Positions 20,434-53,614 of a stretch of 64,000 nucleotides of DNA are shown piece by piece. The translations under genes were made by a program, and so were the position numbers. The stretch lies in assembly GCA_947627155.1 (NCBI GenBank), contig CANQUX010000006.1:10894-74893 (forward strand), in the 5' to 3' direction. The stretch comes from an uncultured Alphaproteobacteria bacterium (GTDB lineage: Bacteria > Pseudomonadota > Alphaproteobacteria > CAAHEQ01 > UBA3637). The notes beneath the pieces were generated by a model that worked only from the letters and a program-made list of their open reading frames with translations, had not been told where the DNA came from and searched no databases. Each line of letters begins with the position of its first letter. Position 1 is the first letter of the stretch.

Positions 20434-21558
20434 TTACTCTTTCAAAACGCCCCACACCGTTGCATGGTTTACTAAACCGGTAATCACGCTATATACAACC
20501 AATGTTCCGGTATGTCCGGCTTCCAAATCACCGATTTCTGTTCTGTCTCTCGGCTGCGTTGAATCACATTTAACACCGCCTTCCGGCAAACAGGATATTT
20601 TAGCCGCATATCCGTCGGGAGGCGGACAAGACTTCGCCATATCCGATTGTGCATCTTTATAAAACACCAGCCAATCATCAATATGCCCTTTCATATATAA
20701 CGTATATGTGTGCTCATAAGGGCCGAATTTAGGATTTGCATTTCTGATAATACATTGGAATTTTTCTTCACTCACTTCAAAAAACTGCTCCGTATCAATG
20801 GAAATAATGCAAGCGTGCTCTTCATTACTGTATGTGCCGCCGTCCGGACAAGCCGTACATTGCTTTGCCGATTGATCACAATAAGGTGCCGTGTCTTTTT
20901 GTTGACATTGACTGCTTTGTGCGCAAACACAGCGATTTTCTTCACAAACGCTCCCGTTCGGATTATCCGCACAATCGGCGCTTGTTTTACACCAATTTTC
21001 GGGATCATTGTTTTCGTGAACTTCTTCCGCATCAAACTGAATATAAATTTCATTATTTTCATCACTCGAACATAAATCTTTTCCCTTATAAGGAAACTCA
21101 TTGATTTCCATATACATTAAATCGTTCATGGCACCGACAAGCGTTGTAAGCGGCTTACAAACCCCTTTCGATATGTTTGCAACAACAATATAATAAGCAT
21201 CTGTTTCGCGACAATCATCAAATGCGGCACCGTCTTTGCGCATACAATCATAATCAACGGGATAACGATTATATTGTGTTGATAAATACCCGCTGTATTC
21301 ACCGTCCGGCGTCTCATCATAAGGGTCTCCCAATATCAATTCTTCGTTTCCGAGTGCGTATTTTACCTTTAAATCGTTACGCATTAAGTTAATTTCATTT
21401 GCTATTTGGTCGGCCTGATAATAATTCATTGCCAATTTATAGCCCACAATCCCGCCGATAGACAGAATAGCAATAATAGCCAGCACGCCCAGCATTTCAA
21501 TCATTGAACGCCCGCTTTGTGATTGATTTTGAATTTGTTTTTTTGATTTTCTTGTCAT
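20434..21558 (-). CDS. Long type IV pilin-like protein with Cys-rich stalk
   Basis: G|RSMIEMLGVLAIIAILSIGG prepilin motif; many Cys; start moved to MTRKSKK (21558) after GAAAGGGAG. Confidence 0.8.
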   Translation of the reverse strand: MTRKSKKQIQNQSQSGRSMIEMLGVLAIIAILSIGGIVGYKLAMNYYQADQIANEINLMRNDLKVKYALGNEELILGDPYDETPDGEYSGYLSTQYNRYPVDYDCMRKDGAAFDDCRETDAYYIVVANISKGVCKPLTTLVGAMNDLMYMEINEFPYKGKDLCSSDENNEIYIQFDAEEVHENNDPENWCKTSADCADNPNGSVCEENRCVCAQSSQCQQKDTAPYCDQSAKQCTACPDGGTYSNEEHACIISIDTEQFFEVSEEKFQCIIRNANPKFGPYEHTYTLYMKGHIDDWLVFYKDAQSDMAKSCPPPDGYAAKISCLPEGGVKCDSTQPRDRTEIGDLEAGHTGTLVVYSVITGLVNHATVWGVLKE

Positions 21559-21596
21559 TTTTCGACTCCCTTTCATTATACGAATAGTATACAATT

Positions 21597-21973: not shown

Positions 21974-22417
21974 TTAGCTTTGTTTGAATTCAACTCCGGT
22001 CATTTTTGTACCGCTGCTGCATCCGTCATTTTTACCCAAAATGCTGGCACCGGCTTTGCAAACGGCTTCTGTCGGGAAATCAATATCTAATTTTACAATA
22101 CCTTTTTTCAAATCCTCATCAGAAGAAGTGCTGTAAGTGATTGTAGCACCGCCCGGTGTTTTAGAAGTGCCGGAATTAACTAAACCGGAAGAGGCTAATG
22201 TGGGGGCTGTCCAATTATTGCCCATGGCACTCGCCGTTTGATAGCCGGAATAAACAACCACAGCAAATTTATTAGCCATATCCAAAGCTTCATTCGCGCG
22301 ATAGCGGTTCATAGCCATGGAATAGCCGGCAATACCGCCAATCGATAAAACGCCGATAATGGCTAAAACGCCCAGCATTTCAACCATTGACCGACCAGAT
22401 TCATTTGTTTTTTTCAT
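21974..22417 (-). CDS. Short type IV (major-type) pilin A
   Basis: MKKTNESG|RSMVEMLGVLAIIGVLSIGGIAGY; C-terminal Cys pair; 147 aa. Confidence 0.88.
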   Translation of the reverse strand: MKKTNESGRSMVEMLGVLAIIGVLSIGGIAGYSMAMNRYRANEALDMANKFAVVVYSGYQTASAMGNNWTAPTLASSGLVNSGTSKTPGGATITYSTSSDEDLKKGIVKLDIDFPTEAVCKAGASILGKNDGCSSGTKMTGVEFKQS

Positions 22418-36932: not shown

Positions 36933-37382
36933 ATGAAAAGAACAAATGAATCAGGCCGTTCCATGGTTGAAATGCTCGGCGTTTTGGCCATTATCGGCGT
37001 TTTATCGATCGGCGGTATTGCCGGTTATTCCATGGCCATGAACCGCTATCGTGCGAATGAAGCATTAGATATGGCCAATAAATTTGCCGTGGTTGTTTAT
37101 TCCAGCTATCAAACGGCAAGTGCTATGGGCAATGCTTGGTCAACCCCCACGTTAGCCAGTTCCGGTTTAGTTAATTCCGGCAGCACCAGCACCGGCGGCA
37201 AAACACCGGGCGGTGCAACCATTACATATTCGGGTGATGAGACTAACTTAAAAAAAGGTATTGTAAAATTAGATATTGAATTTCCGACAGATGCCGTTTG
37301 CAAAGCCGCACAAAGCATTTTGGGCTCAACGACTGCATGTGCTTCTGCCAAGTTATCAGGTATCGAATTTAAACAGAGCTAA
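36933..37382 (+). CDS. Short type IV pilin B
   Basis: Same N-terminus as pilin A, variable C-terminal half; 149 aa. Confidence 0.88.
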   Translation: MKRTNESGRSMVEMLGVLAIIGVLSIGGIAGYSMAMNRYRANEALDMANKFAVVVYSSYQTASAMGNAWSTPTLASSGLVNSGSTSTGGKTPGGATITYSGDETNLKKGIVKLDIEFPTDAVCKAAQSILGSTTACASAKLSGIEFKQS

Positions 37383-37793: not shown

Positions 37794-38294
37794 ATGAAAA
37801 CAACAAACGAATCCGGTCGGTCAATGGTTGAAATGCTTGGCGTTTTGGCCATTATCGGCGTTTTATCCATCGGCGGTATTGCCGGCTATTCCATGGCTAT
37901 GAACCGCTATCGTGCCAATGAAGCATTAGATGTTGCCAACAAATACGCCGTTATTTTATATGCCGGTTATCAAACAGCACAAGCAACGGGAGGCACTTTT
38001 TCAGCTCCTGATTTGGAAGGTGCCGGTTTAACGACAAGTGGTAAAAAAACACAAACCCCGGGCGGTGCCACAATTACACATGGCTCTACCTCAAATAATG
38101 ATTTGAAAGACGGCGTTGTAGAACTGAAAATTGAATTCACGTCAGGCGGTGTGTGTAAAGCCGCAGCCAGTATTTTAGGCATTAGCGCTGCTTCATCTAC
38201 CTCATCCGTTGCCGAAACGCCTTACAGTTGTAAATCAAGTTCAAGTTGCACCGATAGCGGCGGATCAATTACTTATTGTTTCAGACAAAGCTGA
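37794..38294 (+). CDS. Short type IV pilin C
   Basis: Same prepilin N-terminus; Ser-rich C-terminus with 4 Cys; 166 aa. Confidence 0.88.
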   Translation: MKTTNESGRSMVEMLGVLAIIGVLSIGGIAGYSMAMNRYRANEALDVANKYAVILYAGYQTAQATGGTFSAPDLEGAGLTTSGKKTQTPGGATITHGSTSNNDLKDGVVELKIEFTSGGVCKAAASILGISAASSTSSVAETPYSCKSSSSCTDSGGSITYCFRQS

Positions 38295-45944: not shown

Positions 45945-47621
45945 ATGGCATCGTATCAATATATTTATGTGATGAAAGATTTGTGTAAAACTTTTCCGGG
46001 CGGCAAAGAGGTTTTAAAGCATATTTGGCTTTCTTTTTTCCCGGGCGCCAAAATCGGCGTTATCGGGCCGAACGGTGCCGGAAAATCAACGCTTATGAAA
46101 ATTATGGCCGGTCTTGATGAAGATTTTTCGGGCGAAGCTTTTGCCGCAGAGGGTGTTAAAGTCGGTTATTTACCGCAAGAACCGCAACTCGATCCCAATA
46201 AAAACGTTATGGAAAACATTATGGACGGCGTGGGTCCCGTGCGCGATTTAATGAAGCGGTTTGAAGAAGTGAATATGAAGTTTGCCGATCCCGATGCCGA
46301 TATGGAGGCTCTTTTAGCCGAACAAGCGGAATTGCAGGAAAAAATTGATGCCTGCAACGGGTGGGAAATTGAACGAACGGTTGAAATTGCCATGGATGCG
46401 TTACGCTGTCCGCCGGCCGAGGCCGATGTGACGAAACTGTCGGGCGGAGAAAAACGGCGCGTGGCTTTATGTCGGCTGTTATTATCCAAGCCCGATATGT
46501 TGTTGCTTGATGAGCCGACCAATCATTTAGATGCCGAATCGGTTGCGTGGTTACAAATTTTCTTGAAAAATTATGAAGGAACGGTTGTTATGGTCACGCA
46601 CGACAGATATTTTCTTGATAACGTGACCGGCTGGATTTTGGAAATGGATCGCGGCGAAGGAATTCCCTTTGAAGGCAATTATACAAGCTGGTTAGAGCAA
46701 AAAGAAAAGCGTTTGGCGCAAGAACAAACGGCAGAAAGCAATCGGCAAAAAACATTAAAAGAAGAGCTGGAATGGGTGCGTCAATCGCCGAAAGCCCGAC
46801 AAGCGAAATCGAAAGCGCGCATCACGGCTTATGAAGAATTGTTGAAAAAATCAACGGAAAAAGTGCCCGATGTGGCGCAAATTGTCATTCCGGCCGGGCC
46901 GCGATTAGGGCAAGTGGTTTTAGAAGCCGATTCGCTTTCCAAAGCCTTCGGCGATAAGCTTTTGTTCGAAAATTTATCCTTTCATTTACCGGCCGGCGGG
47001 ATTGTGGGTATTATCGGGCCGAACGGTGCCGGTAAAACAACGCTTCTGAAAATTATTACAGGCGCCGAAAAGCCGGACAGCGGCAGTTTTCGTTTAGGCG
47101 AAACGGTGCAACTCGGCTATGTGGATCAATCACGCGATGCGTTGGATAACAACAAAACCGTTTGGCAGGAAATATCGGGCGGACAAGATATATTAACGCT
47201 CGGCAAACGGGAAATCAACTCCCGGGCTTATGCCGCTCAATTTAATTTCAAAGGCCCCGATCAGCAAAAAAAGGTGGGTATGCTGTCGGGCGGTGAACGC
47301 AATCGGGTTCATCTGGCAAAAATGTTAAAATCGGGCGCGAATGTTCTGTTGCTCGATGAGCCGACAAACGATTTGGATGTTGATACCTTGCGCGCTTTGG
47401 AAGAAGCGTTAATGGATTTTCCGGGCTGTGCCGTTATTACCTCGCACGATCGCTGGTTTTTAGATCGCTTGGCAACGCATATTTTAGCCTTTGAGGGCAA
47501 CAGTCAAGTGGTGTTTTTTGAAGGCAACTATGCCGAATACGAGCAAGATAAAAAGCGCCGTTTGGGTGTTGATGCCGATCAACCGCATCGCATTAAATAT
47601 AAGCCCGTTACGCGCTCTTAA
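45945..47621 (+). CDS. ettA: ABC-F translational throttle EttA
   Basis: Two GPNGAGK / LSGGE / LLDEPTN sets; [10 protein letters not shown]; [16 protein letters not shown]. Confidence 0.93.
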
Positions 47622-47805
47622 TGAAGAAAAAACGGCTGAAAAAAGTGATTTTACTCACATAAGGCATAGAGGTTGCCGGTGTGAAAAAAGGGAAACCGGC
47701 AGGAAACAAAAACGGTCGTTTTGCTACCTATAGTTGTGTAAATTATGAATTATTAATTAATTTTTTATTTATTTGTGAATATCTGAGATAATGTGGTATT
47801 CTTTC

Positions 47806-48123
47806 TTATTTTCGGCGGGAAGTGCTATCCCGTGAAACGTGGGATAGCGCGGTGTGCCGAAAATAAAGCGATTCGAGGGGATATCACTCTATTATCTATA
47901 TGGCACTCTCTTTTTTTCCCTATCGGCGGATGTGGGGCGGCGCAATTGTGCCGCTCAACTATGGGCCGATAGAGGGAAAGGAACGGCAGGCTATCATTTT
48001 GGTAAAAGTGGTAAAGACAAGAGATATTTTTAGCCTCTTTGTTTATGAGTGGCACTTTCTCTTATTTTCGGCGGGAAGTGCCGGCTCGTGGAACGTGAGC
48101 CGGCGCGATGTGCCGAAAATAAG
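47806..48123. repeat. Cluster of three REP-like hairpin repeats (47806-47866, 47920-47972, 48061-48123)
   Basis: TCGGC...GCCGA outer stems, conserved internal loop, variable inner stems. Confidence 0.7.
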
Positions 48124-48298
48124 AAAAATAAATGATGCTGCTTTTTCTGCTTGACAATGGTATGAAAAGCTTTTATTCTGGAAGCAAGGCAAGTGATGTG
48201 TGCCCCGAGGCATGACAACCTCTTTAAGCGAATCCTTGAAAAAGGATAAAAAAATTTAGCTCTTTTGGCTTTTGCCACAAGAGAATCAGGTCAACTGG

Positions 48299-48412
48299 CC
48301 GGAAGGTAGTAAAATAAACCTTTTGGTCAATATACTGCGCTATTTCGCTTAAATAGTTGTCAACTTCCGGTCGCCTCTCATCAAGGCGATTTTTTTTGAA
48401 TATGCATCAAAA
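48299..48412. repeat. About 114-bp non-coding repeat, inverted copy at 55328-55441
   Basis: ATGCATAT.CAAAAAAAATCGCCTTGATGAGAGG.GACCG.AAGTT...GCAGTATATTGACCAAAAGG shared; both on the distal side of a cassette. Confidence 0.75.
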
Positions 48413-48569
48413 AAACGTACGTTTTTTGCAACACTTTTTTTGCATTTTTTCAAAAAAATTTTATTTTGAGGTATTTTTAATGTAATATCAATGGTTTATA
48501 ACAAGGCTGTTTCACCAAAATTTGAGGGTAATTTTAACCCTAAAACTGCGTTGCATTAAAGGTACGTTT
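48413..48569. promoter_or_regulatory. Invertible promoter cassette 7 (B arm proximal, predicted OFF/low)
   Basis: AAACGTACGTTTTTTGCAAC 48413-48432 and GTTGCATTAAAGGTACGTTT 48550-48569, then TATGCT; interior homologous to cassette 1. Confidence 0.82.
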
Positions 48570-48604
48570 AATTTATGCTATTTGCATTGAAAGGAAGATG
48601 AAAA

Positions 48605-49969
48605 ATGAGCAATAAAATGAAGAAAAAACAAGTTCAAAATCAAGCGCAACAAGGCCGTTCAATGGTTGAAATGCTGGGTGTTTTGGCCGTTATCGGCGTT
48701 ATCTCACTCGGTGGTATATCAGGCTATAGAATGGCAATGAATCGATATCAGGCAAATCAAATCGCGAATGAAATTAACCTGATGCGCACCGATGCAAAAA
48801 TGAAAGCCGCAATGAAAGCGGCGCAAGGAACGGGAAAGTTGATGTTGGGGGAACCGTATGATTCGGGACACTTAAATTTCGGCAGTAATTATGCCGTTGA
48901 TTTTGATTTTATAGATATTAAATCGGAGGATGAGGGCGTAACGGAAGCGGGATATTATATAAAAATATCAGGCATTTCGGCGGGCGTGTGTAAGCCGTTG
49001 GTCACCTTGTTAAACGGCATGAATGAAACGGTTGCATTAAAGGTCAATGAGGTGGAATATAGCGCGGATTCAAGCACTGATTTCTGCACCGAAGAAAGCA
49101 ATAATGCGTTAGAAGTAGATTTTTCAACGGAAAAAATAATCAGCACTAGCGGAGAGGAACCACCGGAAGAACAAGGCGATGAACCGCAAGATGAGCCCGT
49201 ATGCGATGATGAAACGTGCGCGGGAGGAGAGTGTCAAGCAGATGGAACATGTAAATGCAATGATGAAAATGAATATTGGACGGGTTACGGGTGCACAGCT
49301 TGTCCTGAAGGGGCGCGACAAGAAGATGGAACATGTGAATGCACGGAAGAGAGCCATTTAAAAGGCAGTGCGTGCATCACGTGTCCGGAAGAAGCGCCAT
49401 GGAGTGATGCGGTGGACGATTGCGTTTGTAAAGATGCGGGTAAATATTGGACCAGTGACGGGAAATGCATTGATAATGTGTGCAATAGTGGACAACCTTG
49501 CTCTGATGATGAGGGCGGTGATCCAAAATATTGTGATATGAGTGGTATTTCTTGCGATAATGGGGTTCCGAGCGCAAGTCGTGGCACATGCACACCGGTA
49601 ACAGATAGTAGTTATAGCAAAGTAGAGGTAGAAAATAGTGCAGGAGGTAAAAAAACGATTTATGTGTCAAAATCAAATAATTTTGATTGGTGGGCAGCGG
49701 ATGCGTTTTGCCGAGCATTGGGAAGGAAATTAGGCAAGCCTATGCATTTGGTGAGTTTAGGAGATTTGGGGTGCATATGGGGAAATGGTTGCCCAACAGG
49801 CTCATATGGCAAGTCATTGGTAAGTAAAGGACTAAACGGATTGGGGTGGACAAGTACGCCCTATAATCACGATAATACTTCCTGCCGCGCGGACGGCGTC
49901 GACCTCAATCGCGGTTCCGTCCACTACCTCTATCGCGACGACGACTACTACTACGCCTTATGTGAGTGA
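48605..49969 (+). CDS. Long type IV pilin-like adhesin: prepilin N-terminus, Cys-rich stalk, C-type-lectin-like C-terminus
   Basis: G|RSMVEMLGVLAVIGVISLGG; CxxCP repeats; WWAADAFCRALG..LVSLGDL..WTST..ALCE. Confidence 0.82.
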   Translation: MSNKMKKKQVQNQAQQGRSMVEMLGVLAVIGVISLGGISGYRMAMNRYQANQIANEINLMRTDAKMKAAMKAAQGTGKLMLGEPYDSGHLNFGSNYAVDFDFIDIKSEDEGVTEAGYYIKISGISAGVCKPLVTLLNGMNETVALKVNEVEYSADSSTDFCTEESNNALEVDFSTEKIISTSGEEPPEEQGDEPQDEPVCDDETCAGGECQADGTCKCNDENEYWTGYGCTACPEGARQEDGTCECTEESHLKGSACITCPEEAPWSDAVDDCVCKDAGKYWTSDGKCIDNVCNSGQPCSDDEGGDPKYCDMSGISCDNGVPSASRGTCTPVTDSSYSKVEVENSAGGKKTIYVSKSNNFDWWAADAFCRALGRKLGKPMHLVSLGDLGCIWGNGCPTGSYGKSLVSKGLNGLGWTSTPYNHDNTSCRADGVDLNRGSVHYLYRDDDYYYALCE

Positions 49970-50024
49970 GGCCGGCCGGCTCTTTCCTGATGCCCCGCCT
50001 TTAAGACTTCTATTCAGCGGGGCA
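49862..50024 (+). other. Putative DGR variable region with IMH-like GC run and downstream hairpin
   Basis: 22 of 26 codons in 49880-49957 end in C; GGCCGGCCGGC 49970-49980; stem TGCCCCGC/GCGGGGCA 49991-50024. Confidence 0.65.
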
Positions 50025-50081
50025 CCTCTCCTCTTTTTTCGGCAAGAGGTGAAAATGTGCAATACTGCCGCTCATTTCCCC

Positions 50082-50267
50082 CTATCGGCCCATAGCGACA
50101 GACGACTAAACGCTGTCTGTCACATCCGCCGATAGAGGGAAAGAGCCGTTAACAACACAATTTTTCAACCATTAAGAGAAAAAATTATCTTTTGGCCTTG
50201 CTTCTTTTCTCTGATTCTCAGCGGGTGTGGAGCAACATAATTTAAGCCGTTCCACATCCGCCGATAG
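50082..50267. repeat. Two REP-like hairpin repeats (50082-50135, about 50220-50267)
   Basis: CTATCGGC...CACATCCGCCGATAG, same family as 47920-47972. Confidence 0.7.
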
Positions 50268-50445
50268 AGAAAAAAGAAATACTGATTCACATGGAAAATC
50301 AGTCAAAATTCAGTATCCAAGAAACAATTTCATCGTTCCCCGATAGTAAAAAAACAATAATGCCGCCTTATTTTACGCCCTGCCGATTAATATACCGCCT
50401 TGCTTCACATATATGCAAATAATAAAATCAACTATATGCAGGAAA

Positions 50446-50985
50446 TTATTGCTTCGGCTTGGTAATCAGTTTCACCCGCGGTGCCGATTGAGATTTTCCG
50501 CCTCTGGAATGATAATGAAACGTACCGTCATAGGCAAAACATTCGCCGGCTTTGGGTAAAATCACATCATCATATTGATAAGATTTGCCTTTTTCCGCTT
50601 CAACATAAACCGTTTTTCCCGCAGCGCAGAAAAAGTTTTTCTCTTGCATGGAACATGTTTTTCCCATAGCAAACGTTTTAAATATTTGATATAACCGCAC
50701 ACCGATAATATCGGCACACTTTAACGGTTCTTTTGCAGGCGTTACGGCCATTGCTTGTTTTTTCGGCTTTTTTTGTGCGGATTTTTTCACGAACGCTTTC
50801 TTTTTCGATGTTTGAACGGTTTTTGATGCTTTTGAAACTTTTTGCACCGATTTTGTTTTCTGAACGGATTTTTGAACGGGTGCTTGAATTTCCGCAACAT
50901 TCGCAGGCTCGGTAACAGGCTCGTCAACGGTTTTCAAAGCACAGCCCCCTAAAACAATTAAACCGCACAAAAGCAACTTTTTCAT
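50446..50985 (-). CDS. Hypothetical lipoprotein
   Basis: MKKLLLCGLIVLGG-C lipobox; Lys-rich linker; 4 Cys in the C-terminal domain. Confidence 0.75.
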   Translation of the reverse strand: MKKLLLCGLIVLGGCALKTVDEPVTEPANVAEIQAPVQKSVQKTKSVQKVSKASKTVQTSKKKAFVKKSAQKKPKKQAMAVTPAKEPLKCADIIGVRLYQIFKTFAMGKTCSMQEKNFFCAAGKTVYVEAEKGKSYQYDDVILPKAGECFAYDGTFHYHSRGGKSQSAPRVKLITKPKQ

Positions 50986-51091
50986 TTTAAATCCTCACTT
51001 TCGTTTGCAACATAAACCATAAAAGCATTATATCAGCTTCAAGCATATTTGCAAGAAAAAATTTTAAAGAATCTTATTTGAAACAGCTTTT

Positions 51092-51868
51092 TTATGCCAG
51101 TCCGGAAGAATCTCTTCCGTTTGTCAACGGTTGCACCGAATGAGGCGCCGAATCAGACACAGATGTTGCTCCGTTTTCCGAAAGCGTTAATCTTAAATGA
51201 GAATCTGCCTTATTTTCTGCATTATTTTTCTCTAATGATGAAGTCGGTGCTTCCCGCGACATATTGTTATCGACGACATTATTTTTATAAACATTAACAA
51301 GTTTACCGTTATCATCATATTGATAAGTTTCAACCGGTTCATCATTTTCATAAAGAGTGCGTTCATAAACGGCACCGTTTTTAGAGCTTTCGAATGTTCC
51401 GTTTTTTTTATCGTTTTTATAAGTGCCCGTTGTAATGTAAACATCCTTATCTATCACTTTTTTCTCGTGATAAGAGCCGTTTTTCTTTCCTTTTTTATAT
51501 TCGGCTTTCACTGTTCTGTATAGTTCTTTACCGTCGGAATATTCATAATCAAACCACAAGCCCTCTCGACCGTTATCCGATACGGCTCCCTCCGCCACTT
51601 TTAAGCTTTTATAGGTAACACGCATAAATTTATCTTTTTGCAACACAACAATCCGATTATCGTTTATATCTTTGTTATGATAGTAATCTTTCGCTTTAAC
51701 AACGGCACTATCTTCCCTCATAAGTGAAGCGGAATCAAACACCACATTGAGTGGAAGCGTTACCACATCAGTTATGACATCATAAGCAAATCCGAACACG
51801 TTGCCAACCGCATCAACGGTTTTACCAAAAAATGATTTTTTATCGGAATCGGTATTTTGCATTTTCAC
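51092..51868 (-). CDS. Hypothetical protein with MORN-variant-like repeats
   Basis: YKKGKKNGSY, YKNDKKNGTF, YDDNGKL. Confidence 0.65.
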   Translation of the reverse strand: MKMQNTDSDKKSFFGKTVDAVGNVFGFAYDVITDVVTLPLNVVFDSASLMREDSAVVKAKDYYHNKDINDNRIVVLQKDKFMRVTYKSLKVAEGAVSDNGREGLWFDYEYSDGKELYRTVKAEYKKGKKNGSYHEKKVIDKDVYITTGTYKNDKKNGTFESSKNGAVYERTLYENDEPVETYQYDDNGKLVNVYKNNVVDNNMSREAPTSSLEKNNAENKADSHLRLTLSENGATSVSDSAPHSVQPLTNGRDSSGLA

Positions 51869-52030
51869 CTCTTTTTGTTATTATATCAAATTATAATTTA
51901 AAATGCAAGCACAAAAAAACAAGGTATTGTTTTTTATAAAATCTCCTGCGCTTTTTGCGTTTTGCTTTTTTTACTTGAAAAAATAAAAAAGTTTGTTAAA
52001 ATAAAACCTCTTTTTTGAAAACGAGGACTT

Positions 52031-53614
52031 ATGAGTGAAAATTTAAACAATATTGTTTCAAAACGGCGTACGTTTGCCATTATTTCCCACCCCGATGCCG
52101 GTAAAACCACTTTAACCGAAAAATTATTGCTGTTCGGGGGCGCTATCAATCAGGCGGGAGCGGTAAAAGCGCGCGGCGAAAACAGACGGGCACATTCCGA
52201 CTGGATGAAAGTTGAACAAGAACGCGGTATTTCCGTTGCCTCATCGGTCATGAGTTTTGATTACGGCGGTTGTGCGTTTAATTTGTTGGATACGCCCGGG
52301 CATGAAGACTTTTCGGAAGATACGTATCGCGTGTTAACGGCAGTCGATTCGGCCGTTATGGTGATTGACTGCGCCAAAGGCATTGAGGCACAAACAAAAA
52401 AGCTGTTTGAAGTTTGTCGTTTGCGAGATATTCCCATCATTACCTTTATTAACAAGCTGGATCGCGACGGACAGGAACCGTTTGCGCTGCTGGAAGAAAT
52501 TGAGCAGACTTTGGCGCTTGATGTCACGCCGGCCGTGTGGCCGATCGGTATGGGTCGCGACTTTAAAGGCTGTTTTAATTTATTGACCGACAGTTTAAAT
52601 CTGTTTGAAAAAGGCGAAAAAGGAGCTTTGCCGAAAGAGGGCGCCCATATTGAGGGAATTGATGATGAAAAACTGGATGCCCTTTTGCCGGCCGATCAGG
52701 TGGCGGCGTTGCGTGAAGGCGTTGAAATGGCGCGCGGATTATGTCCGGCATTTGATAAGCAAGCCTATTTGGAGGGCTCGTTAACGCCTGTTTTCTTCGG
52801 GTCGGCCGTTAATAATTTCGGCGTTCGGGAATTATTAGAGGCGCTCATTGCTTTTGCGCCTGCGCCCAAAGAGCAAAAAACACCCGAACGAACGGTTTTG
52901 CCGACGGAAGAAAAAGTATCGGGTTTTGTGTTTAAAATTCAAGCAAATATGGATCCCAAACATCGCGATCGCATTGCTTTTATGCGTTTATGTTCGGGGC
53001 ATTTCAAGCGCGGTATGAAATTAACGCATTTACGCACACAAAAACAAGTGATTTTGCATAATCCCGTTATGTTTTTGGCGCAAGACAGAGCCTTGGCGGA
53101 AGAAGCCTTTGCCGGCGATATTATCGGCCTGCCCAATCATGGCGGATTAAGAATCGGCGATGTATTTTCGGAAGGTGAAACGTTAACGTTTAAAGGAATT
53201 CCCTCCTTTGCGCCGGAATTATTGAAAAAAGTGCGCGCGCAAGATCCGTTAAAAGCCAAACATTTGGCCAAAGCGCTTGATCAAATAGCCGAAGAAGGCG
53301 GTGCGAGCATTTTTAAGCCCGTTCACGGGTTCGAGTGGATTGTGGGCGTTGTGGGCGCGTTGCAGTTTGAAATTTTAGCCGATCGTATTCGCACGGAGTT
53401 TGATATTCCCGTTATTTTTGAGCCGACTTCTTATTACACGGCGCGCTGGGTGCAAGGCAATAAAGAGCAGCTGCAAAAGTTTGAATCGGCAAATGCCGTG
53501 ACTTTGGCAACGGATCACGACGGTGATACGGTTTTTTTGGCGCGCAATGCTTGGCATTTAAACAAGGCGCAGGAAGATTATCCCGATTTACGGTTTTTAA
53601 AAGTTAAAGAATAA
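52031..53614 (+). CDS. prfC: Peptide chain release factor 3
   Basis: RRTFAIISHPDAGKTTLTEK, DTPGHEDFSEDTYR, FKIQANMDPKHRDR. Confidence 0.97.
   Translation: MSENLNNIVSKRRTFAIISHPDAGKTTLTEKLLLFGGAINQAGAVKARGENRRAHSDWMKVEQERGISVASSVMSFDYGGCAFNLLDTPGHEDFSEDTYRVLTAVDSAVMVIDCAKGIEAQTKKLFEVCRLRDIPIITFINKLDRDGQEPFALLEEIEQTLALDVTPAVWPIGMGRDFKGCFNLLTDSLNLFEKGEKGALPKEGAHIEGIDDEKLDALLPADQVAALREGVEMARGLCPAFDKQAYLEGSLTPVFFGSAVNNFGVRELLEALIAFAPAPKEQKTPERTVLPTEEKVSGFVFKIQANMDPKHRDRIAFMRLCSGHFKRGMKLTHLRTQKQVILHNPVMFLAQDRALAEEAFAGDIIGLPNHGGLRIGDVFSEGETLTFKGIPSFAPELLKKVRAQDPLKAKHLAKALDQIAEEGGASIFKPVHGFEWIVGVVGALQFEILADRIRTEFDIPVIFEPTSYYTARWVQGNKEQLQKFESANAVTLATDHDGDTVFLARNAWHLNKAQEDYPDLRFLKVKE

Follow-up and report, generated by a model that had tools for sequence, protein, structure and literature searches.

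A pilin-like gene in the window (the whole 64,000-nt stretch of DNA that was analyzed) switches at its 3' end to codons that mostly end in C. The question raised by this locus is whether that end was written by a diversity-generating retroelement (DGR) and, if so, where the writer is. In a DGR, an error-prone reverse transcriptase (RT) copies a template repeat (TR) with AAC or AAT diversifiable codons, adenines are misread, and the cDNA replaces the end of the gene, giving NNC codons on an invariant scaffold. The preliminary description of the locus had proposed an orphan target, with RT and template elsewhere in the genome. The tract at 49879-49976 is very probably a variable region (VR) of the DGR-written kind, capping a C-type-lectin-like domain (CTLD) on a type IV pilin-like protein; that a DGR wrote it is inferred. 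This reading is supported by 26 gene ends with the scaffold and NNC anatomy, by variability at the template adenines of a congener (G019), and by the CTLD and pilin folds.

Gene architecture and codon usage

The gene and its parts were delimited as follows.

48605-49969, plus strand: pilin-like adhesin gene, a 454-aa open reading frame (ORF) in the order pilin domain, Cys-rich spacer, CTLD ending in the VR
48635-49177, plus strand: pilin domain, with a prepilin-like leader (...QQG/RSMVEML..., Gly17 and Glu22), a long hydrophobic alpha-1 helix and a beta-sheet
49200-49600, plus strand: acidic Cys-rich spacer of repeated C..C..C modules, seen in the translation
49604-49966, plus strand: CTLD, of which the VR forms the last ~30 residues
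49879-49976, plus strand: VR tract of DGR type, with ~17 NNC/NNT variable codons among invariant scaffold codons, running past the stop codon into GGCC(A/G)GC

The product ends in ...SCRADGVDLNRGSVHYLYRDDDYYYALCE. Among the 26 codons of 49880-49957, 22 end in C, three in T, one in G and none in A, so that the codon switch noticed in the preliminary description held on recounting. C-ending codons make up 68 of the remaining 425 codons of the gene (16%), and the excess in the tract was significant (binomial P = 2.4e-14, Fisher P = 3.2e-13). In the genome's long ORFs, T is preferred to C at the third position (C/(C+T) = 0.369), and the genome-wide share of C at that position is 16-19%.

At the N-terminus, a possible class III signal peptide (Gly at -1, Glu at +5) reads G17/RSMVE22 and is followed by ~20 hydrophobic residues; the motif is invariant in 20 paralogs, with an unusual Arg at +1, and a prepilin-like N-terminal motif was found in 86 ORFs of the genome, this gene among them. 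The AF2 model of the domain (20 paralogs, pLDDT 73.9) has a helix at residues 15-64 and 4-5 strands, and fulfils the pilin-fold criterion, its long alpha-1 helix packing against a beta-sheet. With this model, Foldseek ranks 1-7 were all type IVb pilins (prob 0.92-1.00, E merely 2e-3 to 1.6e-2), including 9iuf_A (E 2e-3, prob 1.00), TcpA and PilS. The earlier label 'pilin-like' was therefore upheld by fold, while sequence family models stayed below their cut-offs (Pfam N_methyl, 12 bits against 21.2; the NCBIfam prepilin peptidase-dependent protein model, 15 bits against 158). No Pfam family matched the Cys-rich spacer. Family matches show that the genome encodes a prepilin peptidase (one Peptidase_A24, 54.2 bits) and assembly machinery (three T2SSE, best 230 bits; one secretin, 39.5 bits), the secretin gene lying 3.5 kb from the best-scoring T2SSE ATPase on contig C4; processing and incorporation of the 454-aa protein are inferred.

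The CTLD was modeled by AF2 from 34 sequences (pLDDT 92.6, pTM 0.88), the first 39 residues of this C-terminal model being beta-hairpins (pLDDT 70-93). Foldseek placed 8q4e_A first, which is the C-terminal domain of Legionella Lcl (E 7e-3, prob 1.00), with CTLDs in the other top rows. In a wide search with VIA-align, all 50 listed entries were CTLDs or structural relatives (best Z 9.8, model residues 40-160), at sequence identities of 7-20%. Pfam gave no match for the domain, and neither FGE-sulfatase nor DUF1566 fits. Seven residues are invariant across the 34 aligned C-terminal domains (W68, W69, C75, C96, C102, W121 and C159), and 69 CTLD matches were counted in the genome. The C-type-lectin fold claimed in the preliminary description was thus confirmed by structure prediction of the last ~120 aa, and the WW..A..FC / WT.T pattern on which it had relied, upstream of the VR, is genuine and conserved. 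Both protein folds are shown, as predicted by the models, and a VR at the C-terminus of a C-type-lectin fold, as expected of a DGR target, is present.

The VR makes up the last ~30 residues of the CTLD, and a Cys-rich stalk joins this domain to the pilin domain. The protein is most likely a modular minor pilin with a variable ligand-binding face displayed on a pilus; surface display and adhesion are inferred.

Twenty-six gene ends with one scaffold

The VR is not the only one. Profile search with nhmmer (at least 70 bits) found 26 copies in the 1.56-Mb genome, every one at the end of an ORF, which the preliminary description, with its orphan target, could not know. Over the 325 pairs of copies, identity was 93% at scaffold columns and 35% at variable columns, and the 300 nt upstream of the VR were at most 90% identical, mostly below 80%; the scaffold is homogenized across otherwise diverged paralogs. 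In AAC-equivalent codons all four bases occur at positions 1-2, with A the most frequent, and the third position is C in 269 of 281 cells (one dimorphic column excluded). Some paralogs end the same domain with ordinary codon usage, and there the NNC pattern is absent.

Two linked scaffold types were distinguished, CTC-NNT-NNC (8 copies parsed and 3 read by eye) and CTT-NNC-NNT (11 copies), with 4 exceptions. The VR at 49879-49976 is of the CTC-NNT-NNC type (its line was unparsed and was read by eye). Within the DGR reading, at least two template haplotypes are inferred to have written the 26 VRs.

An artefact of assembly or binning, in which the 26 copies would be strain variants or foreign contigs pooled in one bin, was considered. 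In its favor, the genome is a 32-contig draft, and about 9 of the 26 copies lie on contigs below 51 kb, several of them below 11 kb. Against it, contigs of 61-192 kb carry 17 of the copies, up to 5 on a single contig, and the contamination estimate is 0.21% (completeness 95.8%, smallest contig 2866 bp). A sister genome, G014, independently shows the multiplicity (15 DNA matches, 54 CTLD matches). The exact VR of the window also recurs in four runs (X1-X4) of one rabbit gut metagenome sample; these do not count as independent, because the sample may be the source of the window. An artefact is all but excluded.

Two features of the copies count against the DGR reading. The first is scaffold decay. 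Over 50 scaffold columns per copy, 6 of the 26 copies have no deviation and 8 have one (14 with at most one), 10 have three or more, and the VR at 49879-49976 has two; in total 48 of 1296 cells deviate (3.7%). This is above the value for active DGRs, in which the median of non-adenine substitutions is 0 (PMC11661182, Table 2). The second is length, since the number of codons after the CGC codon ranges from 5 to 10 and one template would not predict such variation. The latter objection is tempered by indels of one codon or 2 nt in three of four intact congener TR/VR pairs.

Variability at the adenines of a congener template

As no template was found in the assembly, the VRs could not be compared with their own template for adenine-specific change, and the TR of G019 was used as a proxy. 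In that genome the locus L029 has the order pilin-like target, bAvd (PF22296, 68.7 bits), TR, RT (RVT_1, 79.8 bits), and all 14 TR/VR mismatches fall at template adenines. An RT of the same clade is present in 7 of 20 congeners. As in the genome studied here, the G019 target combines a prepilin-like N-terminus with a CTLD that ends in a VR; its VR/TR scaffold is homologous (60.9 and 51.9 bits against the VR profile of the 26 copies), and the tracts of the two genomes share their 5' start (..TTCCTG..) and end just beyond the stop codon. The G019 TR is not the cognate template, because scaffold codons differ at synonymous sites. G019 also has a writer and only one VR that matches its TR, in contrast to 26 VRs and no writer in the present assembly.

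Highly variable columns among the 26 copies were found at 29 of 35 adenine positions of the G019 TR, against 5 of 54 positions elsewhere (Fisher P = 1.2e-12, Mann-Whitney P = 9e-11). Such column-wise P values overstate independence, because the 26 copies are paralogs. Shown, then, are the scaffold/NNC anatomy and the match of its variable columns to template adenines in a congener.

The preliminary description had predicted adenine-specific variation, which held by this proxy and not on an own template. The template it had written out is close to the inferred scaffold, except that its first AAC is a TAC scaffold codon in 25 of 26 copies. It had also named three outcomes that would refute it, namely no RT or template in the genome or its relatives, no adenine-specific variation, and a fold other than C-type lectin. 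All three were examined and none was met, given the RT and template in relatives, the adenine-linked variation (by proxy) and the CTLD fold.

A non-DGR origin would combine diversifying selection on surface residues, gene conversion that homogenizes the scaffold, and local codon bias. For it speak the whole-gene replacement described below and the conserved 5' and 3' ends, which indicate active recombination in the family, and an assembly without a writer. Against it, selection on amino acids would not fix C as the third base where the genome has 16-19% C3, would not make A the leading base at the first two positions of each variable codon, and would not put variability on exactly those columns where a homologous and working congener template has adenine. 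Conversion spanning 50 scaffold columns would also homogenize the variable columns interleaved with them, yet these are 35% identical, and the paralogs whose domain ends in ordinary codons do not show the NNC pattern. This origin is regarded as very unlikely. To our knowledge, targeted hypermutation of proteins occurs naturally in prokaryotes only through DGRs.

Flanking elements

Conserved elements lie on both sides of the gene.

48400-48604, plus strand: upstream conserved region of the pilin-like gene family, probably a shared promoter and 5' leader (promoter role inferred)
49970-49980, plus strand: GC-only run directly 3' of the stop codon (GGCCGGCCGGC), candidate IMH-like 3' boundary of the homogenized tract (there is no template to define an IMH)
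49991-50024, plus strand: conserved hairpin, with an 8-bp GC-rich stem (49991-49998/50017-50024) and an 18-nt loop, from DNA folding
~50027-50051, plus strand: second hairpin with a T-run within it, from DNA folding, possibly a terminator (function inferred)
50072-50146, plus strand: nested palindromic intergenic repeat, with an outer stem (...CTATCGGC / GCCGATAG...) and an inner GC stem, member of a genome-wide repeat family
47653-47682, minus strand: 30-nt relic of a VR 3' end, a weak nhmmer match (17.7 bits, profile positions 101-130)

The 205 nt upstream of the gene matched the genome 89 times by blastn (at least 60% query coverage, 26 contigs), and more than 100 places in the sister genomes G014 and G015. 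Downstream, GGCC(A/G)GC is kept in 25-26 of the 26 copies, and beyond it the copies fall into two classes. The first hairpin was counted 27 times, on 17 contigs; it is also seen after some paralogs with ordinary codons and at sites away from VRs, and so tracks the gene family and not strictly the VRs. Taken over the full 106 nt, the folding energy is unexceptional (z = -1.69, 10 of 200 shuffles equally stable), so that the hairpins deserve attention for conservation and not for stability. A GC-rich element and a hairpin 3' of the VR are therefore present and conserved, and the GC run and two hairpins of the preliminary description were found where it had put them, but IMH and IMH∗ cannot be defined without a template.

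The palindromic repeat has 70 copies on 23 contigs (at least 60% query coverage), and homologous copies of it fold with z = -5.05 and -5.78 (0 of 200 shuffles equally stable). Further copies were seen at 47800-48150 on the minus strand. The relic at 47653-47682 may be the remainder of a lost paralog on the opposite strand, which is inferred from the weak match; no ORF is attached to it. A search of Rfam with 46000-52500 gave just 3 sub-threshold matches, for example sRNA-Xcc1 (33.1 bits against a gathering score of 53).

Search for the writer

No RT was found in the assembly by PF00078 (0 matches), by an RT alignment (0 matches), or by tblastn with four congener RTs, except for a 3' remnant of ~60 aa. 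This decayed remnant (C2:90680-90500) adjoins one of the paralogs. It aligns to residues ~314-372 in three congener RTs (z = 7.4-8.0; none of 300 shuffles scored as high) and is common to this genome, G014 and G015. No template repeat was found by blastn at word size 7, by an nhmmer profile of which all matches were inspected, or with the G019 TR as query. For bAvd, PF22296 had 0 matches in this genome, G014 and G015, against one each in the controls G019 and G001, and tblastn with three congener Avd proteins gave a best E of 0.46. PF05635 was unsuited to this clade, as it scores even the Avd of G019 below cut-off, and PF22296 was used instead. None of the three components of a complete DGR (RT, TR, Avd/bAvd) is thus present in the assembly; that RT, bAvd and template are absent from it, and that the decayed RT 3' remnant is shared with G014 and G015, is shown. 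On this point the preliminary description was not borne out. The checks it had proposed (blastn at word size 7 for the template, searches for RT and Avd) returned none of the three, and its RT and template elsewhere in the genome are reduced to a decayed RT fragment in a 95.8%-complete assembly. Because the assembly is not complete, an unassembled RT copy is not excluded.

Two candidates for the template were rejected. An A-rich stretch (C15:39925-39770) aligns in a downstream hairpin element but not in the VR body; it belongs to a 277-nt element with another occurrence on C2, immediately upstream of the RT remnant. A supposed template array, at C5:87.2-89.0 kb and on C30, consists of open-frame coding repeats rich in Thr, Ser and Pro.

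The search was also extended beyond this genome. G014 and G015 (76-77% complete) share the VR family, yet RT, bAvd and template are missing from both. Among metagenome RT loci, of which the best 80 of 131 relatives were kept, none had a template or VR of the scaffold found here (nhmmer, 0 at E <= 1e-3); with filters off, only a generic CLec pattern appeared, and the positive controls G019 and G001 were recovered. In viral contigs, the conserved 3' end of the VRs had no exact match. In runs X1-X4, for which only contigs were available, the exact VR of the window lies on single contigs (depth ~5-8, 0 differences). These contigs are uninformative on ongoing mutagenesis, because minority variants are lost in contigs and the window may come from this very sample.

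Writer lost or writer unassembled

Two readings of the missing writer remain. In the one that is marginally favored, this lineage has lost it, and the 26 VRs would be a frozen library in which whole genes are exchanged between their conserved 5' and 3' ends. Loss and non-assembly are not settled between.

In the other, judged slightly the weaker of the two, the writer is alive. A full RT-bAvd-TR unit, with at least two templates or one that changes, would sit in the organism or in a carried element, unassembled or unbinned, and would act in trans on 26 dispersed VRs, being a short repeat-bounded unit that escaped assembly or binning. Repeats do break this assembly, given its smallest contig of 2866 bp and the many VRs within 1-5 kb of contig ends. 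Six of the VRs have no scaffold deviation and eight have one, and third-position C is held in 269 of 281 cells despite the genomic preference for T (C/(C+T) = 0.369). The shared RT remnant was already dead before the split from G015 (~80% identity), so that more decay than is seen would be expected were that remnant the sole writer. Remote targets are documented in other DGRs (PMC5758913).

Divergence from G014 has been counted on the same side. None of 9 G014 VRs had a counterpart in this genome at variable columns (best identity 0.40-0.56), and the CTT-NNC-NNT type, found in 11-12 of the 26 copies, occurs in 0 of 7 strong G014 VRs. The absence of shared VRs is confounded, however, and cannot be assigned to a DGR: at the sole positional ortholog of the two genomes the whole gene was replaced, not the VR alone, with the VR 3' end as breakpoint, and five G014 VR genes (of six VR ends in the loci examined) are just 75-86% identical to their best paralog here.

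Further points against a living writer are that RT, bAvd and TR are absent from three assemblies rather than one, and that no cognate template was found in the 80 metagenome RT loci or in viral contigs. Scaffold decay of 3.7% is also close to half of the 7.4% divergence from G014 over 2094 nt, the share of a single lineage, and this fits VRs frozen since about the split from G014.

A bolder form of the living-writer reading is possible, though less likely than not, namely a DGR that acts wholly in trans on at least 26 dispersed genes for modular type IV pilins, with at least two templates and an unlinked writer, which may occupy an unassembled island or a mobile element. If it is true, no DGR in the open-access literature examined would have a larger set of targets, and a gut symbiont with a genome of 1.56 Mb would devote ~100 kb to pilus-tip lectins that form a somatically diversifiable library, with replacement of whole genes between the conserved ends as a further source of reshuffling.

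The system allows tests of how dozens of loci can be served by one retroelement or by two templates, and of the fate of a hypervariable repertoire when its writer decays, which may freeze into a germline library shuffled by recombination. Variability of pilus-tip lectins is suggested as a major investment of an uncultured gut alphaproteobacterium with a small genome, and offers a lead to the attachment of such organisms to host glycans or partners (adhesion being inferred). Large DGR surveys are blind to remote targets (PMC8144416), and 26 VR genes without a writer imply that RT-anchored surveys miss entire repertoires.

Comparison with known systems

No study of DGRs in this bacterial group was found in the open-access literature searched. 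Classical DGRs with C-type-lectin-fold targets (PMC5758913) likewise have the VR at the C-terminus of a CLec fold, adenine mutagenesis based on AAC that yields NNC codons, and a GC-rich element and hairpin after the VR. The model systems are Mtd of Bordetella phage BPP-1, LdtA of Legionella and TvpA of Treponema. The present genome differs from them in its 26 targets, type IV pilin carrier, two template haplotypes and codon-length variation, in the RT, Avd and TR missing from the assembly, and in a domain without a Pfam family. Seven remote targets are described in Treponema and eight tandem targets in a Stenotrophomonas cassette (PMC5758913). The 26 targets and two template haplotypes exceed all counts in the open-access literature examined, supplementary tables not covered. 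As for the carrier, a GspG-type pilin domain holding a VR has been recorded as 'scarcely represented' among DGR targets (PMC11661182), and 'putative pilin structures' are mentioned as targets (PMC6642488).

Many CLec-domain targets within one genome are also found in Thiohalocapsa PB-PSB1, which has 15 such target genes and nine DGR loci with RTs in a large genome; its targets were expanded by intragenomic duplication, and at one locus the RT is present and the TR missing (bioRxiv 10.1101/2023.09.22.558884). Those targets are cytoplasmic sensors of NACHT/STAND type, whereas here there are 26 surface proteins of pilus type, no RT in the assembly and a genome of 1.56 Mb.

PilB and PilC of Streptococcus sanguinis (PMC8179133, PMC9934059) similarly have a functional module grafted on a pilin, which in that species confers adhesion or glycan binding. 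These modules are single-copy and are not known to be diversified by a DGR. In the present family the module is instead a VR-bearing CTLD carried by a Cys-rich stalk, and dozens of paralogs have it.

In Neisseria, pilE and pilS provide many pilin copies whose conserved ends permit recombinational swapping of variable parts; the silent copies are promoterless, and variation arises, as far as is known, by gene conversion alone. Whole-gene replacement between conserved ends, as seen here, resembles this mode, but the present genes are full-length ORFs with conserved upstream regions, and their variable tract has the signature of a retroelement.

A further comparison is with the type V pili of gut Bacteroides (bioRxiv 10.1101/2024.11.15.621889), where, as proposed here, a DGR diversifies an adhesive pilus tip in a gut bacterium. 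That system belongs to another phylum and another pilus type and uses linked cassettes, whereas the repertoire described in this study is type IV-like, with 26 dispersed members.

Variable 3' end of the putative adhesin gene

The variable region (VR) under study, 49879-49976, is the 3' end of a pilin-like, putative adhesin gene, with the following features.

48605..49969, plus strand: pilin-like gene ORF, 454 aa, with the C-terminus as previously read
49970-49980, plus strand: GC-only run, present

C-ending codons made up 22 of the 26 codons in 49880-49957, with none ending in A (0/26), against 68/425 in the remaining gene (binomial P = 2.4e-14); third-position C/(C+T) was 0.369 genome-wide. 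Both hairpins 3' of the VR (49991-50024 and 50023-50051) were found, and were distinctive by conservation (27 copies in the genome), their folding energy being unexceptional (z = -1.69). The codon switch, GC run and hairpins claimed in the preliminary description therefore all held at these coordinates.

VR family in the source genome

The draft assembly (G000) comprised 1,558,032 bases in 32 contigs, with the window at G000:C6:10894-74893, and sensitive blastn of 49800-50060 against all of it matched ~32 places. A VR profile built from 22 copies gave 26 matches at ≥ 70 bits plus 2 weaker, below which lay the ends of diverged paralogs, ordinary in their codon usage. The VR was the extreme ORF end in 26/26 copies; the ORFs were mostly 443-573 aa (one was 1410 aa, 4 were truncated by contig ends), and contigs > 60 kb carried 17/26 copies. 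In these copies, which are paralogs and not independent samples, invariant codons alternated with NNC codons, continuing past the stop into GGCC(A/G)GC. AAC-equivalent codons had all four bases at positions 1-2, A being most frequent, and C at position 3 in 269/281 cells (one dimorphic column excluded).

Across 325 paralog pairs, identity was 93% at scaffold columns vs. 35% at variable columns, and ≤ 90%, mostly < 80%, in the 300 nt directly upstream of the VR. As the scaffold exceeded the upstream sequence in identity, the tract was homogenised independently of its carrier genes. Such a pattern is expected if a common template overwrites the tract, but not under selection plus gene conversion, the rival origin for the tract pattern. 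Three linked C/T-dimorphic columns defined two haplotypes, CTC-NNT-NNC (8 parsed and 3 by eye) and CTT-NNC-NNT (11), with 4 exceptions, and haplotype showed no relation to tail length (5 to 10 codons) or downstream class. From this linkage, two templates are inferred.

Comparison with congener DGR cassettes

Reverse transcriptases (RTs) of one clade were present in 7/20 genomes of the genus and 16/80 of the family. In the congener G019 the order was pilin-like target, accessory variability determinant (bAvd; PF22296, 68.7 bits), template repeat (TR) and RT, and 14/14 TR/VR mismatches fell at template adenines. Three other congeners (G005, G012 and G001) had 15, 14 and 15 adenine mismatches, with 4 further non-adenine mismatches in G001. 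The G019 TR was homologous to the G000 VR scaffold, and columns highly variable among the 26 G000 copies accounted for 29/35 G019-TR adenine columns vs. 5/54 others (Fisher P = 1.2e-12). An origin of the tract by a diversity-generating retroelement (DGR) is considered very likely. VRs matching their own TR were few in writer-bearing congeners, a writer being the RT-bAvd-TR unit (G019, 1; G016, 3; G001, up to 6).

A TR/VR indel of 2-3 nt occurred in each of the G005, G012 and G001 pairs (3/4 intact congener pairs), given which slippage on AAC runs may plausibly, by inference, have produced the variation in tail length. As separate observations on G005, G001 and G012, the indels (extracted loci L026, L027 and L028) sat within the AAC-rich part, and the matching VR was on the opposite strand, past the RT, and not in the adjacent pilin-like gene; its carrier was a small (~120-136 aa) signal-peptide protein with a C-type-lectin-like domain (CTLD).

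Missing writer and RT remnant

No template-like adenine-rich VR copy was found in the G000 assembly, and neither was an RT or bAvd. Both genes were absent alike from G000 and the sister genomes G014 and G015, with G019 and G001 positive as controls. A fragment of RT was located outside the window.

G000:C2:90434-90925, minus strand: A-rich element and RT remnant
G000:C15:39746-40021: second copy of the A-rich element, extending 23 nt into the remnant

The remnant, the 3' part of a DGR-type RT (C2:90680-90500; ~60 residues, ~240 nt downstream of one VR gene's stop), aligned to three congener RTs at their residues ~314-372 (z = 7.4-8.0; 0/300 shuffles reached the score). The A-rich element, 277 nt between that stop and the remnant, ran directly into the remnant at C2; the C15 copy, unlike the C2 copy, continued into the hairpin element. 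Two small GC stems around TTTAAAA were also observed in the element. Element and remnant were common to G014 (91% over 580 nt) and G015 (~80%, more decayed), and the VR DNA family was restricted to these genomes and G000 (3/41 genomes searched). As all three share the remnant and lack RT and bAvd, that cassette was dead before the lineages split.

Scaffold deviations per copy were 0 (6 copies), 1 (8), 2 (2, the window copy among them), 3 (6), 4 (3) and 6 (1), or 48/1296 cells (3.7%) overall. Third-position C was lost in 12/281 cells (4.3%), and orthologous G000 and G014 flanks differed by 7.4% over 2094 nt. These decay figures fit VRs last written near the G000/G014 split and fit slow ongoing writing equally. 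Given a DGR origin, we lean slightly towards a frozen repertoire; the rival, an unassembled writer that is still acting, is only a little less favored.

Pilin-like family and gene replacement

The prepilin-like motif was found in 86 G000 ORFs, small pilins of ~150 aa (three inside the window) included. Four more pilin-like genes were located in the window.

20434-21576, minus strand
21974-22417, minus strand
36933-37382, plus strand
37794-38294, plus strand

One of the four, 380 aa long, belongs to the 'SQSGRSMIEML' subfamily and is without a VR-type end; the other three (147-166 aa, ending ..FKQS/..FRQS) are probably major-pilin-type subunits. CTLD matches numbered 69 in G000 and 54 in G014; six congeners had 31, 21, 20, 17, 14 and 10, and the remaining 13 had 0-4 each. 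The relatives' records are of uncultured gut Alphaproteobacteria. The 205 nt 5' of the adhesin gene (48400-48604), AT-rich and ending in the ribosome-binding region, occurred at 89 places in G000 and > 100 in G014 and G015. A single promoter and leader seems to serve all pilin-like genes, which poses the question of how the 86 are selected for expression.

Strong G014 VRs were of CTC type in 7/7 cases, and 9 G014 VRs had no variable-column counterpart in G000 (best identity 0.40-0.56). This comparison is confounded by the positional ortholog (G000:C2 vs. G014:C17; L224, L225), where the two genomes are collinear for the 2094 nt that follow the VR stop (92.6% identity) but the VR gene is non-orthologous, having been replaced in full; the break falls precisely on the conserved VR 3' end. 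G014 VR genes were only 80-86% identical to their best G000 paralog, whereas EttA was 98% identical. Whole genes of the family are concluded to be swapped between loci or strains, and their replacement, bounded by the conserved 5' region (89 copies) and the conserved 3' end, is hence demonstrated as a second way in which the repertoire changes. Separately, the pilin-like gene beside EttA also differs between G000 and G014.

Repeats and other observations

A 30-nt relic of the VR 3' end (..CTCTATGCCTTATGTGAGT..) was observed at 47653-47682 (minus strand), just beyond the stop of an ABC-F (EttA-like) gene; no ORF is attached, and it is probably what remains of a deleted paralog. Nested palindromic intergenic repeats occurred at 50072-50146, 50200-50270 and 47800-48150 (minus strand). 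Their outer stem ends in ...GCCGATAG/GCCGAAAA, their inner GC stem varies, and the 3' arm, CAC(A/T)(T/C)CCGCCGA, is conserved. These REP/MITE-like repeats (70 copies, 23 contigs) were much more stably folded than shuffled sequences (z about -5 to -6) and often formed arrays of 2-3 between pilin-like genes. A sub-threshold intergenic sRNA-Xcc1 Rfam match upstream of the gene (48297-48380, plus strand; 33.1 bits vs. gathering score 53, E 0.007) probably reflects chance or a structured repeat. Long C/A-rich tandem coding repeats at G000:C5:87200-89062 (a single open frame for 1862 nt) and C30:1-400 encoded Thr/Ser/Pro-rich (mucin-like) stretches, and a C15 paralog had a similar Thr-rich linker ahead of its CTLD.

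Protein architecture

The last 160 aa, in an alignment that also included 33 paralogs and the target of G019, were modeled as a CTLD (pLDDT 92.6). Foldseek placed the Legionella Lcl C-terminal domain first (E 7e-3, prob 1.00), ahead of other C-type-lectin-like domains, and in a Foldseek-independent structure search 50/50 listed entries were CTLD-type (Z up to 9.8, model residues 40-160). The N-terminal ~181 aa gave a 50-residue helix and a sheet (pLDDT 73.9), with type IVb pilins as the seven best Foldseek rows. As both pilin family models scored below cut-off on the 454-aa protein and leader residue +1 was Arg, assignment to the pilin family is made on fold and motif. Also encoded in G000 are a prepilin peptidase, three T2SSE ATPases and a secretin. 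The protein is read as a modular minor pilin in which a Cys-rich stalk lies between the pilin domain and a variable lectin-like head; its display and adhesion are inferred.

Comparison with known systems

The preliminary description, of a DGR-type VR on a C-type-lectin-like head borne by a pilin, held in substance, and its 'orphan' target, for which RT and template were expected elsewhere in the genome, held as an orphan within the window. It did not include that this is one of 26 VRs, that there are two template haplotypes, or that only a dead RT fragment is present in the assemblies of G000 and its two sisters. In the literature examined, reported DGR targets go up to 8 in tandem or 7 remote per DGR (PMC5758913), with 15 per genome the reported maximum (bioRxiv 10.1101/2023.09.22.558884); DGR surveys are blind to remote targets (PMC8144416), and pilin-type targets are only mentioned in passing (PMC11661182, PMC6642488). 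Against the literature examined (supplements excluded), the VR multiplicity and writer-less state are new, DGR-type VRs themselves being already known. The joining of a pilin domain to a lectin-like head in G000 follows a logic comparable to that of S. sanguinis modular pilins (PMC8179133).
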